DNA of 64,000 nucleotides, from NCBI GenBank assembly GCA_963713855.1, contig OY970209.1, forward strand, positions 64,001 through 128,000, read 5' to 3'. The notes under the pieces were generated by a model, which searched no databases, had not been told where the DNA came from, and saw only the letters and a list, made by a program, of their open reading frames with translations. Shown piece by piece: positions 184-53,896 of this stretch. Position numbers and translations under genes: made by a program. This stretch comes from an uncultured bacterium. GTDB taxonomy: Bacteria > Babelota > Babeliae > Babelales > Babelaceae. Within the stretch, counting starts at the first letter, position 1. Each line of letters opens with the position of its first letter.

Positions 184-1350
184 ATGCATAAACATCACCT
201 AAAAAAAGCTTTTGCAATCATCCTATCTTTGATACTAGGAAGCGCAAATTATGCTGCCGGATATGCAAACGGCAGGTTTTTTAGGGCAAGATGCTTTCAA
301 GATGAACCCGAAATACCACCTGAAGGATTTTTAAGGACCGTTACCAAGTTTTATCAAACTTCTACGGATACTGCTTTTAACAGCAACGGTAAAAAAGTTC
401 CCCTACTTGCGCTTTATGGACCCGAAACAAGTCCAACCGGTGAATGTAAAAACCTTTTTTTAGATGGGCATTTTTCTTTCTTTGAAACGCAATTTGAAAC
501 CTATTATACTTTTGGCAAGGGATTTTTTGTCCATACGTTTCTCCCTTATTTTTCCGCGCACATAACCGATATTATGCCCTCAAGTTCCTCTGAAAGCTGT
601 AGAGAGGCTTTTGAAGATTTACAAAATACGATTGCAAAAAAGGGCATTACCTTTGAAGCAAGCGATAGGAAAGGAATTGGTGACTTTATCCTTTTTGGGG
701 GTTGGCAAGGAAAAAACTACGACCTATCAATGGTCGATTTCTTAACCGCCCAACTTCAAATTGGTATCCTCTTTCCCACCGCAAAAAGATGCAACATGGG
801 TGAGACGTGCGCGCTCATACCTTTTGGATTTGAACGTACGTGGGCTATCCCAATCGTCACTAACGGTGCTGTGGGCTTTTTGGACTGGCTTACTTTTGGT
901 ATACGTACTGAAACGCTTTTCTTCTTTCCAAGGACAAAGTCAATTGGCATTCGCACTAACGCTTTACAAACCGGCATTTTAAGACTGACGCAGGATCCTC
1001 ATGCACGAATTAAAGAAGGAACACTTTTTGACGTGAGCATATACCTTAAAGCTGACCATTTTATGAAAGGGTTCTCTCTAGCAATAGAATTTACCCACGA
1101 GCACAAGCTTCGCACTAAAATAAGCCCATCAATTCGTGTAGATCCAGCGGCCGTTAACAGCGATCCAATCTTTGCTGGCTGGACGATGAATATATTCCAT
1201 ATCAATGCCGAATATGATTGGTCTAATGAGGATAATCCCTATGGGCCGATTATCGCTTTCAATTACAACTACATCTTAAGCGGTAAACGCATTTTCAATG
1301 CTTCAACATCGGTAGGGAAATTTGAGTTAAGGCTTAGATTCGATTTTTAA
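184..1350 (+). CDS. Secreted hypothetical protein, possible outer-membrane beta-barrel
   Basis: 388 aa ORF, N-terminal signal-like segment, alternating aromatic/hydrophobic strands, C-terminal Phe (LRLRFDF). Confidence 0.6.
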   Translation: MHKHHLKKAFAIILSLILGSANYAAGYANGRFFRARCFQDEPEIPPEGFLRTVTKFYQTSTDTAFNSNGKKVPLLALYGPETSPTGECKNLFLDGHFSFFETQFETYYTFGKGFFVHTFLPYFSAHITDIMPSSSSESCREAFEDLQNTIAKKGITFEASDRKGIGDFILFGGWQGKNYDLSMVDFLTAQLQIGILFPTAKRCNMGETCALIPFGFERTWAIPIVTNGAVGFLDWLTFGIRTETLFFFPRTKSIGIRTNALQTGILRLTQDPHARIKEGTLFDVSIYLKADHFMKGFSLAIEFTHEHKLRTKISPSIRVDPAAVNSDPIFAGWTMNIFHINAEYDWSNEDNPYGPIIAFNYNYILSGKRIFNASTSVGKFELRLRFDF

Positions 1351-1357
1351 GAAAAAC

Positions 1358-1666
1358 AGGGAAGGATACGCCTACGCGGCATCATAAGAGTCATAGTATT
1401 GACTCTTATGAAAGGGCTCATAAGCCTGGACTCAGGCTTTATGACCCTTGACCCACACCCTGCTTAAACTTTTTATGGTTGTTTAATATACCAGAAAGGG
1501 AACCCTTTCTGGTATATGTGCCTAATGAGATAGACCGGTTTTTCCGGTCTATCTCATACACTATAAGTATGTAAGGAGCAAAACAAGAAACAGGTGCAGG
1601 ACGATGTCCTGCCGCTCGACGCGTAGTCGCCTATTTCTCTTTGGCTTACTTAGGAACTCTACCTAG
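1358..1666. repeat. Multi-hairpin dispersed element, copy 1 (MITE/REP-like or structured ncRNA)
   Basis: Stems 1382-1393/1400-1411, 1412-1428/1433-1449 (two bulges), 1486-1500/1503-1517, 1525-1538/1544-1557, 1596-1602/1606-1612; closing IR ctacgcg 1372-1378 / cgcgtag 1620-1626; close homologue at 32123-32397. Confidence 0.9.
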
Positions 1667-18785: not shown

Positions 18786-20083
18786 CTATCGAGCAAGAGT
18801 TTTTAGTACATGGGCAATTGGGCTCGTCAATGATGAGGCAGCATTTGTGGTACCGCCTGTTACAGTAGTGGTGCCTGTGGCACTTGTGGCGCCCGTCGTG
18901 GTAGAAGGCGTACATCCTACAAGAGTAAATACTGTTACATCCGGTATGCCGCCATTTGCTAATGAACCATAATTAACAGTAACCAAGTATTGGCCCGAAG
19001 GTGAGAATGCTAGTCCCCAAGGATTTGTAGAACCAGCGGGTAATGGGTATGAGGTACCATCACTCAAGGTTCCGTCTGCCGCCACCGCAAACATCGTTAC
19101 ATCATTTGAGCCAGTAGAAGCGACTGAGACGCCCCCATTAGCAGTAACCAAGTATTCGCCAGAAGGTGAGAATGCCAGTGCGTAAGGATTTATAGAACCG
19201 GAAGGTAACGAATATGAAGTACCTGCGCTTAAGATTCCGCCCGCTTCCAACGTAAACACCGTCACTTGATTTGAGCCGAAATCAGCTGTTGCAAGGTATG
19301 TCCCGTTCGGTGAAAATGCTATTGAAGCCGGAGAAGAACCAAGAGGCTGACTAACAGTATTTCCCTGACCTGATAGCGTTCCCGTTCCTAGACTAAATAC
19401 CGTTACACCACTGGGGCAATTGCAGCAAGGGTAACAGCCGAAATCAGCTGTAACAATATATTTTTCATCATGGGAGAAAGCTAGCGAAGTGGGATTCGCG
19501 TCAACAATTGGTATAGCGGAACTTTGTGGACCAGATAAGACTCCCCCTGCTTCCACCGTAAACACTCCTATATCTGCCGCACCATGCGGACCAGCGCCAT
19601 CAGTATAAGCTACGTATGTTCCGGAAGGCGAGAACGTTACGAAGTTGGTTTGAGGGCTTGCTACTAAGCCGACATTGTATCAGCTACCGGCACTTATGGC
19701 ACCTCCAGCTCCAACCGTAAACATGGTTAAAGAGCAAGCAGGACTAATTGTGCCGCCACTAACGTCGTGACTAACAGCAGCTATGTATCCACCAGATGGT
19801 GAAAATGCTGAGAGACTATATCGGCAAGATAAGAGGGTAAAGGATACGGAGTACCAGCACTTAATGCTCCTCCTGATCCCATCGTAAACATTGTTATCTC
19901 GCTGGAACTGCCAATGGCAACGTAGGTGCCAGACGGCGAGAACGCAATTGAGTCAGCAAGAGAAGTACCAGATGGTAAAGGATACGATGTGCCTGATTCT
20001 AGAGAACAAACAGCGTCAGATTGTAAACTCACCATAAGAGGAGATAATGCGCAGATTAAATATGAAATCATGATAATTTTCAT
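18786..20083 (-). pseudogene. Disrupted secreted beta-propeller (lactonase/WD40-like) repeat protein
   Basis: ~45-aa repeats AFSPSGxYLxTAN...VTxF; frameshift near 19810-19825 and in-frame TGA at 19680-19682. Confidence 0.75.
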
Positions 20084-32122: not shown

Positions 32123-32397
32123 CTAGGTAGCTTTCCCTAAATAGCTCAGTCAAAGAGAAATAGGCGCCTACGCGGCGAGCGCTCATAAGCCTGTACACAG
32201 GCTTTATGACCCTTGACCCACTTCTTAAACTTTTTATGTGGGTTTAATATACCAGAAAGGGAACTCCCTTTCTGGTATATGTGCCATGAGATAGACCCGG
32301 TAAACCGGGTCTATCTCATACACAATAAGCATGTAACACTCAAACAACAGGTGCAGGACAATGTCCTGCCGCGCGCCGAGTAGGCGTATTTTTCCCT
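32123..32397. repeat. Multi-hairpin dispersed element, copy 2
   Basis: Core 32181-32372 co-linear with 1416-1615; same stems, different loops; IR cgcctacgcggcgagcg / cgcgcgccgagtaggcg. Confidence 0.9.
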
Positions 32398-32522
32398 CAT
32401 TTTTATTTAGGCACAGAAGCTAGACTTTTGATAATTATTGTTATTGCTCTATTTCTTGAAGCGACCTAGACAGAAAAGCTCTTTAGAGCTAAACTTCTTG
32501 TCGTACAGGCGCAAAGGAAACG

Positions 32523-51617: not shown

Positions 51618-53896
51618 TTAAAGCGAGCTATCTGCGGAAGTAGTCAGTGATTCATCGCCAAAGTTAACACTTCCCGCCCGATGTTTATGCAAGTACTTAT
51701 ACAGTAAGCAAGAAGTGACAGCGCCAGTTACCGCTAAGAGGCCAAATGCTACCGGAACCCCCACCGTCGTTCCTATAATAACGCCCAAAGGCAGATTACT
51801 ACCTCCATCTCCAGTTCCTGTACTTGTACCAAGCAACGGAAAGACTGAAACGTCATTTGATGCCTTATTTGCTGTTACAATAACCATATTTCCACTGCTT
51901 TCAAGAGGTGAAAAAGTTAATGCTTCATCATCACTCGACTGATCAGGCAAATAATAAGAAGTCCCCTGATCTAATATATCATTGATAGAGCTGAAAAGCG
52001 TAATACTATTGGAGCCGCTATTGGCCGTAGCAAGATAGGCCCCATTCGATGAGACCGCAATAAAAACTGGCTCAACAGCGCCTGCAGGTAATGGATAGGA
52101 TGTTCCAGCGCTTAACCTACCTACTTTTATAGGAAAAATTGTTATATCATTAGAGTCACTATTAGCGGTGGCAACAAGAAATTCACCGGTGCTCGTAGGC
52201 ACAAAGACAAGTGACCGAGGCTTTTTAGAACCAGCAGGCAGAACTTGAGATGCTATACTCTTCAACACCCCGTTTGTTGCATTAAAAAGCGTTACGTCAT
52301 TTGAAGCACTATTTGCCGTAGCAAGATACACACCATCAGAAGAAAAAGCGACTGCTACCGGATCCAAAGATCCTGCGGTAATCATAAGAGTGAGCATTCC
52401 CGTAGAGCTTGTCCAACGAACTTGAATATGGTCACATCGTTCGAATTACTATTTGCAAGAGCAAGATATGCATCGTCGGGCGAGAAATTAATTGAAGCAG
52501 GGTTGGATGAATTTGCAGGCAATGCATACGAAATACCACCTGTTAATTGCCCTCCGATCACTTTAAAAAGGGAGACATCATTGGATTTACTATTGGCAGT
52601 GGCTAGATACGACGCATTGTTTGAAAAAGCAAGATCGAACGGGAACAATGAGCCGGAAGGTAAAGGAAAAGATATTGCATTATTGAGCGTACTGTTCGCG
52701 TTCACCGTAAACAATGTTATATCGCTTGAGTTATAATTTGCTGTTGCAAGATACAAACCTATCTGGCAAAAAGTCACTGCGTCGGGTTCACTGATCCAGG
52801 TGGTAAAGGATAAGACCTCCGAGCTTGCTTGAAAACAAGCCAGAGCCGTAAAGACCGTTATGCTATTTGAATTGAAATTAGCAGTTGCCAAATACGCACC
52901 GGAAGGCGAAAAAGTTGCTGATTCTGGATAGGTGGAGCCAGAGGGTAAAGCATAAGAAGCAGCCCCGCTTAATACTCCTCCTGTTTGCACGTTAAATACT
53001 GTTACATCATTTGACTGAGCGTTAGCAGTAACCAAGTAAGTGTTCGAGGGCGAAAAGTTTACTGAGATAGGACCTAATGAACCAGCGGTAACGGATATGA
53101 AGCGCCATCATTCAAGGTTCCTCCTGCTTGCATGCTAAACACAGTGACATTAGCTGAAGTGCTATTAGCAGTTGCCAGATATGCACCAGATGGCGAAATT
53201 GCAATTGATTCCGGACCTGTCGAGCCAGCAGGTAAAGGGATAGGAAATACCGGTACTTAAAACTCCTCCTGTTCCCACCGTAAACACCGTAACATCATTG
53301 GAGAGGTCGTTAACAGTGACCAAATAATTGCCCGATGGTGAAAATGCTACTGAAGAGGCCCCGAGAAACTCCGGGCAAAGAATACGTCGTCCCTCCGCTT
53401 AATACTCCTCCTCCTACTGTAAATATGGTCACATTATTTGAAGGGCTATTAGCAGTGGCCAAATAATTGCCGGATGGGGAAAATGCCACTAACTGGGATC
53501 AGTAGGCCCCGAAGGTAAAGCATACGAGTCCCTCCGCTCAATACTCCGCCTGTCACGGTAAATATGGTGACATCGCTTGAGCTGGCATTGGCAGACACTA
53601 AGTAAGCACCTGAAGGCGAGAACTTTAGCGAAACAGACTGATTACTACCAGCTGGTAAAGATACGAGTACCGCACACTTAAGGTCCCCCCTGTTTCCACC
53701 GTAAACATTGTTACATAGGATGGATTGAAGGCGTTTGATGTAGCTAAATAGGTGCCTGAAGGCGAGAATGCTACTGTGGTAGGACCAGGCCCGCCGCTAA
53801 AGGGTAAGATATACCTGATTGCAGGGAACAAATAGCACCAGATTCTGAACTCATGAGAAGAGATGAGAGCAGGCTCAATACTATAGTAATTTTCAT
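51618..53896 (-). pseudogene. Multiply frameshifted beta-propeller repeat surface protein with C-terminal TM helix
   Basis: ATG at 53896 after GGGGAG, signal MKITIVLSLLSSLL; more than 10 repeats SYxLPxGSxxPxxxxFSPxGxYLATANxxSNDVT across several frames; TM then YKYLHKHR. Confidence 0.75.

Follow-up and report, generated by a model that had tools for sequence, protein, structure and literature searches.

Two regions of the window, by which we mean the whole 64,000-nt stretch of DNA analyzed, carry copies of a small noncoding element: copy 1 at positions 1349-1666 and copy 2 at positions 32123-32423 (Table 1). The left edge of copy 1 follows directly upon the native TAA (1348-1350) of an open reading frame (ORF) at 184-1350, and the terminal CTAG of this copy (1663-1666) provides the TAG stop of a minus-strand ORF at 1663-2163 (read as CTA at 1663-1665). 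The C-terminus and stop of ORF 184-1350 are mirrored in a homolog from a congener (~38% identity; sequence read by eye), and since the bases preceding copy 1 are thus the native end of this ORF, its A arm is shortened to ~20 nt (1349-1368). Elsewhere in the window, a repeat search found that the regions at 18970-19990 and 51850-53780 have common families of diverged tandem units of ~140-165 nt, which are probably repeat-domain coding sequence on the minus strand.

Table 1. Positions of the parts of the two element copies in the window (IR, inverted repeat)
Feature	Position (nt)	Strand	Remarks
Copy 1, outer arm type A, ~20 nt	1349..1368	+	Abuts native stop of ORF 184-1350
Copy 1, left inner IR, CGCCTACGCGGC	1369..1380	+	
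Copy 1, H module, an extra 10-bp-stem hairpin	1383..1410	+	Present in 9/20 full copies
Copy 1, conserved core	1419..1595	+	Three further hairpins and asymmetric spacers; same strand as copy 2 core
Copy 1, core hairpins	about 1419-1443, 1487-1518, 1525-1557	+	
Copy 1, right subterminal hairpin, GCAGGAC...GTCCTGC	1596..1612	+	
Copy 1, right inner IR, 17-nt form, variant CGACTACGCGTC	1613..1629	-	
Copy 1, outer arm type B (B' on + strand), CTAG end	1630..1666	-	
Copy 2, outer arm type B, CTAGGTAG at start	32123..32164	+	
Copy 2, left inner IR, 12 nt plus GAGCG	32165..32181	+	
Copy 2, conserved core, without H module	32182..32352	+	Same strand as copy 1 core
Copy 2, right subterminal hairpin	32353..32369	+	
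Copy 2, right inner IR, 1 mismatch	32370..32386	-	
Copy 2, outer arm type A (A' on + strand), CTAG end at 32420-32423	32387..32423	-	

Layout and anatomy of the element

The original prediction, made from the window alone, held that copy 1 is arranged as A-core-B' and copy 2 as B-core-A', with the core on the same strand in both. Our analysis bears out this layout. Read directly, the A arm at 1358-1380 shares 20 of 23 nt with 32375-32397 taken in reverse complement. For the B arm, a repeat search returned an inverted pair (1613-1646 and 32148-32181) of 34 nt with 91% complementarity, within which lies the match of 29 of 31 nt reported before, and the sequence CTAGGTAG at 32123-32130 recurs at 1659-1666 in reverse complement. 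Pairwise alignment and direct repeats (D9, D11, D13, and D15) place both cores on the same strand. The arms had also been said to share a common sequence, and the 12-mer CGCCTACGCGGC, with two mismatches or fewer, does occur four times in the window, and these occurrences coincide exactly with the four ends of the elements. However, shuffled windows contain this 12-mer 1.8 times on average, and 6 of 100 shuffles reach a count of 4, so that the 12-mer alone is weak evidence and it is the 34-nt arms that carry the weight. One boundary needed correction: copy 2 had been taken to end at 32397, and its A' arm continues to a terminal CTAG at 32420-32423.

From the outside in, a copy consists of an arm, an inner IR, a subterminal hairpin, and the core, followed by the mirror arrangement on the opposite side; we refer to everything between the arms as the inner unit. 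The outer arms are ~40 nt long, with B a diverged inverted repeat of A. The inner IR is perfect over 12 nt (17 nt in many copies), and the subterminal hairpins start 17 nt inside each inner boundary. The core, of ~150 to 200 nt, contains two long hairpins with asymmetric spacers. As single strands, the two window copies are predicted to fold far better than shuffled sequences (z = -11.8 and -11.2), and compensatory double changes are found in 9 of the 47 predicted hairpin pairs. CTAG is present at both outer ends of most copies; being a palindrome, it could belong to the repeat or represent a target duplication. At the inner junctions, no direct repeat indicative of such a duplication was seen. 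The B-specific GG stays with the arm in both configurations, which places the exchange junction at the outer edge of CGCC.

Two additional hairpin modules vary among the copies described below. The H module adjoins the left inner repeat in 9 of 20 copies, and in 4 of 20, those at 22.3, 431, 974, and 1197 kb of the genome (L274, L282, L289, and L290), the right subterminal hairpin has an insert of ~70 nt in its loop. This insert carries two hairpins of its own, and its carriers comprise three copies that are A-core-B' or ambiguous and one that is B-core-A'. In the copies at 561.5 and 570.9 kb (L286 and L287), the H module is found beside the right inner repeat as well, and its loop there is mirrored in one copy and on the same strand in the other, which makes it a second, smaller instance of a loop that occurs both ways round.

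Census of the element and distribution of its end module

The genome to which the window belongs (G000) is a single contig of 1.52 Mb that is 91% complete. BLAST and motif scans located 21 element copies in it, 250 to 380 bp in length, all of them noncoding and intergenic; the flanking genes converge at 11 of them, diverge at 5, and are in tandem at 5. Every match to the inner repeat (0 to 1 mismatch) that is followed by element sequence falls within these 21 loci, and the few other 12-mers with 1 mismatch elsewhere in the genome have no element sequence adjoining them. Within this genome, we found no arm sequence outside the 21 loci, no inner unit outside arms, and no empty arms.

Tabulation of arm and core orientation over all copies had been proposed as a check on the flipped arrangement, and it gave 12 A-core-B' copies (A/B), 7 B-core-A' copies (B/A), 1 ambiguous copy, and 1 truncated copy. 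Clustered without supervision on their inner 24 nt, the 41 arms fall into two classes with 19 and 22 members, and 19 of the 20 two-armed copies have one arm of each class, the exception being the copy at 22.3 kb, which has a degenerate left arm. This copy was treated as A/B in the trees, the identity values, the isomer ratio, and the arm-column and clustering tests and as ambiguous in the counts of arm classes and replication polarity; the trees, identity tables, and isomer counts omit the truncated copy at 578 kb.

Two isomers exist, and A and B are not interchangeable. The original prediction had itself named two ways in which this could be wrong, namely, that A and B can stand in for each other as variants of one terminal repeat, with A-A and B-B copies common, or that one locus is misassembled. 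The arms do align as diverged forms of one ~40-nt outer repeat, but none of the 19 classifiable copies is homotypic: all 19 pair one A with one B, which has a chance of ~2e-6 under free assortment. Misassembly of a single locus does not account for 7 B/A copies beside 12 A/B copies, each of the B/A copies having sequence differences of its own. We therefore regard both explanations as scarcely credible.

Outside this genome, a BLAST search against 40 relatives found matches only in one congener (G001), where they are restricted to the inner repeat and the right hairpin. The related family in G001 is ~330 bp long; its core is different, its flanks are short, and its 17-nt end units are arranged in tandem. 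At L006:1520-1575, L008:1485-1520, and L016:1527-1560, the 17-nt end unit stands two to three times in tandem at the hairpin end, and degenerate copies of the end are found ~50 nt outside the opposite end of this family. The B arm is absent from G001. That genome also offered no usable empty site: the flanking homologs (proteins 63% and 38% identical) have no element beside them, and the neighboring ORFs gave no match when queried against the retrieved G001 loci. Taken together, the absence of arms outside the 21 loci, the absence of the B arm from G001, and the sharp CTAG ends fit with the arms belonging to the unit.

The end of the inner unit is distributed more widely than the element. In a sample of 201 genomes from the phylum, only G000 (14 matches) and G001 (22 matches) contain the end pattern, with 0 matches for the control. 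In public collections, the pattern is followed by a hairpin of the same kind in 62 of ~240 retrieved loci, which by record title come from Planctomycetota and Phycisphaerae, Clostridia, Kouleothrix, and deltaproteobacterial assemblies; the remaining matches look like chance occurrences in GC-rich coding DNA. The forms in other phyla are either elements of 120 to 165 nt with both ends or tandem arrays of 39- to 41-nt units. In Planctomycetota, the 17-nt end, a GC-rich hairpin, and then ACCC bound repeats of 120 to 165 nt (L035:2501-2622, L079:2501-2632, and L041:2358-2522), and the same succession of end, hairpin, and ACCC, which is also that of the element's own terminus, bounds such repeats in Kouleothrix (L074 and L091) and in L036 and L071. 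In Clostridiaceae bacterium strain 9 (L075:2501-2678, L030:3512-3758, and L063:2501-2644), the 39- to 41-nt units stand head to tail, up to seven in a row, in intergenic arrays adjoining ordinary-looking genes.

Pairs of ends 1.7 to 2.1 kb apart in other genomes (L052 and L070) were considered as a possible autonomous parent; in the translations that we read, they enclose ordinary-looking genes and no transposase. Likewise, no parent insertion sequence with the same ends was found in G000 among the inner-IR matches or in searches for DDE_Tnp_1, IS110, and Y1. An exact 28-nt core pattern had 0 loci in the metagenome and genome collections, and in a plasmid collection copy 1 had no match and a Planctomycetota copy had one 26-nt match that looks like chance. 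The best score against Rfam 15 was 28.8 bits, compared to a gathering cutoff of 40, and five related loci had no match. Neither the motif nor repeats of this kind in this phylum were found described in the literature searched. The occurrence of one end module in distant phyla hints at a widespread mobile family for which Rfam and the literature searched gave no description.

Core orientation and the separate histories of arms and inner units

Cumulative GC skew places the replication origin of G000 at ~392.5 kb (minimum) and the terminus at ~1192.5 kb (maximum). Relative to these positions, the core is on the minus strand in all 11 copies of the right replichore and on the plus strand in 8 of the 10 copies of the left replichore. 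It thus has the same polarity with respect to the replication fork in 19 of 21 copies (P = 2.2e-4, for a pattern found post hoc), or in 18 of 20 if a copy 5 kb from the terminus is left out. A proxy based upon local GC skew likewise gives 19/21. The polarity is kept in both isomers (11 of 12 A/B copies and 6 of 7 B/A copies), whereas for the arms no more than 12 of 19 copies agree in polarity (P = 0.36). The pattern is not repeated in the related G001 family, where local GC skew matches the orientation of 7 of 19 copies.

The polarity also holds for 11 of 11 copies between convergent genes, which means that transcription cannot explain it. Despite the clear GC skew, the genome has essentially no gene strand bias, with 51.6% of coding bases on the leading strand (1042 ORFs), and at this share gene strand bias has no power as a test for inverted segments. 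The direction of the core shows no consistent relation to neighboring genes. A role of core direction in serving the neighbors was considered; tandem contexts, in which a gene start is pointed at in 3 of 5 cases, are uninformative. Core orientation follows replication in these 19 of 21 copies and is not free; a freely reversible switch would randomize it.

Conservation differs between the parts of the element. Mean pairwise identity is 88% for the core, compared to 58% for A arms and 67% for B arms. Mantel correlations among A-arm, B-arm, and core distances are ~0, and core distances within isomers (0.121) hardly differ from those between isomers (0.122). Neither the tree of cores nor that of arms has a starred branch, and both are star-like; the isomer label changes 7 times on the former and 6 times on the latter, which is no fewer than with shuffled labels. 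Star-like trees such as these lend no positive support to a small number of flips or to inheritance, and a single origin is neither shown nor excluded by them.

The copies at 1504 kb (A/B) and 1197 kb (B/A) are 99.4% identical over 155 aligned nt, a figure that leaves aside a 20-nt deletion and the ~70-nt right-hairpin insert of the 1197-kb copy. The match spans the left inner IR and the core up to the right hairpin, and the arms of the two copies are unrelated. Near-identical inner units in unrelated arms indicate that inner units have been copied between loci without their arms, and we infer that this took place by gene conversion in which the recipient kept its configuration.

The isomers are not scattered at random along the chromosome. 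They form 4 circular runs, compared to a mean of 9.6 in shuffled arrangements (P = 0.0096), and six B/A copies stand in a row from 96 to 418 kb, across the origin (P = 0.0033). Copies with the H module comprise 8 A/B and 1 B/A (binomial P = 0.039), and columns of the A arm are weakly associated with isomer (permutation P = 0.047). Together, the chromosomal clustering, the bias in the H module, and the A-arm association suggest that a multiplying element passes on its configuration and that this multiplication is probably short-range. The isomers stand at 13:7, in agreement with a ratio of 1:1 (P = 0.26). One-ended copying, in which the arm on one side would be the more decayed, was also considered; the match of the outer half to the consensus is 0.72 on the left and 0.79 on the right (P = 0.19), and we discarded the idea on this ground.

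Origin of the two isomers and relation to known systems

The flipped arrangement had been attributed to recombination between the inner IRs, as in an invertible switch or flip-flop isomers. The first part of this proposal stands as the simplest origin of the second isomer, with the exchange point located in the shared inner IR; the second is not supported. The proposed search for recombinases, carried out in G000 across five families (tyrosine, serine, Piv/IS110, DDE_Tnp_1, and Y1), found one tyrosine and one serine recombinase, neither of them an apparent invertase, and no Piv/IS110. The tyrosine recombinase (317 amino acids) has XerA as its best match (E = 4e-41), compared to E values of 6e-9 or weaker for invertase models. 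The serine recombinase is of the large type and broken into at least three consecutive ORFs (1495.4-1496.8 kb; L002:1495-2799). Its fragments adjoin a probable tRNA gene, as judged from ORF translation, and are probably the remnant of an integrated element. Across these five families, no gene of the invertase, Piv/IS110, or DDE_Tnp_1 type was found in this 91% complete genome, and the Y1 (HUH) transposase model PF01797 had 0 matches. A consensus scan for sigma-70-like promoters, in a phylum whose promoters are uncharacterized, found none in the core of copy 1 or copy 2 and two promoter-like sites in the copy 2 region, both outside the core.

A programmed reversible switch (phase variation), with a site-specific recombinase acting on the inner IRs, is therefore very improbable. 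It would agree with the presence of a ~200-bp segment that is bounded by short inverted repeats and found both ways round, with the one tyrosine recombinase gene in the genome, and with the inversion of miniature transposable elements with inverted repeats (MITEs) that the review PMC10969869 reports for Correia elements. However, that tyrosine recombinase is Xer-like, the serine recombinase is of the large type and in pieces, and neither core has a promoter-like site. Furthermore, 11 of the 21 copies lie between convergent genes, orientation follows the replichore, the isomers are arranged in blocks, and the arms are conserved, which a switch would not need. Judged from the sequence, the two forms look like fixed historical products rather than switch states.

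We consider a three-step history to be the best explanation, with a tentative probability of about 0.4. To begin with, the inner unit would have inverted on one or a few rare occasions by DNA exchange within its own 12- to 17-bp inner IRs, likely by template switching in a fold-back during replication or by short-homology recombination, and with no need of a dedicated recombinase. Both isomers would then have spread as whole units, for the most part locally, and each would have landed with its inner unit in the same polarity relative to the fork. Gene conversion would subsequently have homogenized the inner units between loci while the arms drifted. Such a history would account for the strict pairing of A with B, the lack of empty arms, the clustering of the isomers, the bias in the H module, the polarity seen in both isomers, and the mosaic pair at 1504 and 1197 kb. 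Its weak points are the star-like trees, the poor conservation of the arms, and the polarity of the inner unit. The last of these makes whole-unit transposition awkward: cleavage would take place at the outer ends, yet the polarity is that of the inner unit. The post hoc nature of the polarity, the 7/19 agreement in G001, Mantel correlations of ~0, and the failure to find a cognate transposase also count against it.

The main alternative, which we judge to be unlikely, is that the inner unit alone is mobile and inserts into the center of older palindromic A-B' arms either way round, probably as single-stranded DNA at the replication fork, so that the isomer merely records the orientation of the resident arms. 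Conservation that is much lower in the arms than in the core runs opposite to the pattern of a typical MITE and speaks for an inner unit moving alone, as do the polarity of cores but not of arms, the mosaic pair with its matching inner units in unrelated arms of opposite configuration, an isomer ratio compatible with 1:1, and the lack of a target duplication at the inner junctions. The inner IR and hairpin are, moreover, the terminus of repeats with differing flanks in G001 and in other phyla, and an orientation bias relative to replication is described as a signature of single-strand transposition in passages of PMC5027513 and PMC3971601. However, empty arms or arm-free inner units were found at none of the 21 loci and in none of the 40 relatives (BLAST), and the B arm is absent from G001. 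The clustering of isomers and the 8:1 bias among copies with the H module would be unexpected if arm orientation were random, no Y1/HUH transposase gene was found in G000, and the G001 family lacks the polarity.

Replication could instead act on copies already in place. Flipping of the inner unit in situ, driven or selected by the direction of replication, would turn back cores that came to face the wrong way after an inversion or a shift of the origin. This would explain why cores face the fork alike in both isomers, why six of the B/A copies form a block across the origin and the seventh lies 5 kb from the terminus, and why the copies at 96, 234, and 320 kb share their absolute arm orientation with A/B copies of the right replichore; the absence of gene strand bias, so that transcription does not explain the polarity, is in line with it as well. 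We nevertheless find it improbable, since it requires six or more independent directed flips by way of 12- to 17-bp repeats, leaves the 160-kb copy fitting neither state, and meets with no reversed segment in the cumulative GC skew from 0 to 392 kb, no polarity in the related family of G001, and no mechanism or precedent in the literature searched. A broader conjecture, also a long shot, is that the inner unit is a replication-sensing module, turned or recopied so as to face the fork alike regardless of its arms, and that the 17-nt end plus hairpin defines cassettes mobilized as single strands across phyla (this genus, Planctomycetota, Clostridia, and Chloroflexota) by an enzyme other than Y1. 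If either replication-sensing or flipping in situ were true, B/A copies would mark segments whose direction of replication has changed.

If the three-step reading holds, the element would be a clean natural example of a miniature repeat in which the middle and the ends have separate histories, with ends that drift and a middle that is kept alike between loci and aligned with replication in 19 of 21 copies of a genome whose genes are unbiased. It raises testable questions as to how orientation is set in nonautonomous elements, how short inverted repeats bring about inversion without an invertase, and how elements move without a cognate transposase. It also carries a warning for annotation: dimorphic repeats should not be called phase-variable switches from sequence alone.

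Invertible promoter switches of the fimS type and the Bacteroides type consist of 200 to 300 bp between short inverted repeats and occur in both orientations. The element described here resembles them in having a segment bounded by short IRs in both orientations. It is unlike them in that it has no promoter-like site and no dedicated invertase and in that it forms 21 dispersed copies with conserved flanking arms and an orientation tied to the replichore; the recombinase and the promoter are the two points on which it falls outside this group.

Among mobile elements, Correia elements, the MITEs of Neisseria, are likewise small, intergenic, and nonautonomous, with terminal inverted repeats in end subtypes. 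According to the review PMC10969869, they carry promoters and an IHF site and have been reported to invert (there citing Elbeyioglu et al. 2017). Their sequence is unrelated to that of the present element, which has no promoter-like site and which differs from them in its two-layer ends, strict A+B pairing, replication polarity, and clustering of isomers. The IS200/IS605 family and its miniature derivatives share with it subterminal hairpins at both ends, inner junctions where no target duplication is seen, and a strong bias in orientation that is consistent with the lagging-strand template (19/21 here, and 7/19 in the G001 family). According to PMC5027513, single-strand transposition in IS200/IS605 leaves a bias in orientation relative to replication as its signature, and PMC3971601 reports such a bias for several other insertion sequence families. 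However, IS200/IS605 elements are without terminal inverted repeats, whereas the present element has a perfect 12- to 17-bp pair, and there is no Y1 gene in G000 and no 4- to 5-nt target was identified. Membership as an IS200/IS605 derivative was rejected on the presence of the terminal inverted repeats and the absence of the Y1 gene.

REP sequences and REPINs, which are mobilized by RAYTs, resemble the element in having hairpin modules arranged as inverted doublets around a variable, hairpin-forming spacer and in that the terminal module forms tandem arrays in another genome. For one REPIN group, a passage of PMC3337134 describes two doublet configurations. The element is unlike them in that no RAYT/Y1 gene was found in G000, in that its core of ~200 bp is conserved in sequence, and in that its terminal module is common to several phyla, which in the literature consulted is unusual for REPs. 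Overall, the element works most like a bacterial MITE or a REPIN. It is under about 500 bp, multicopy, and noncoding and has terminal inverted repeats, made up of an inner IR of 12 to 17 bp and arms of ~40 nt, and we accordingly class it as a new variant of the MITE kind.
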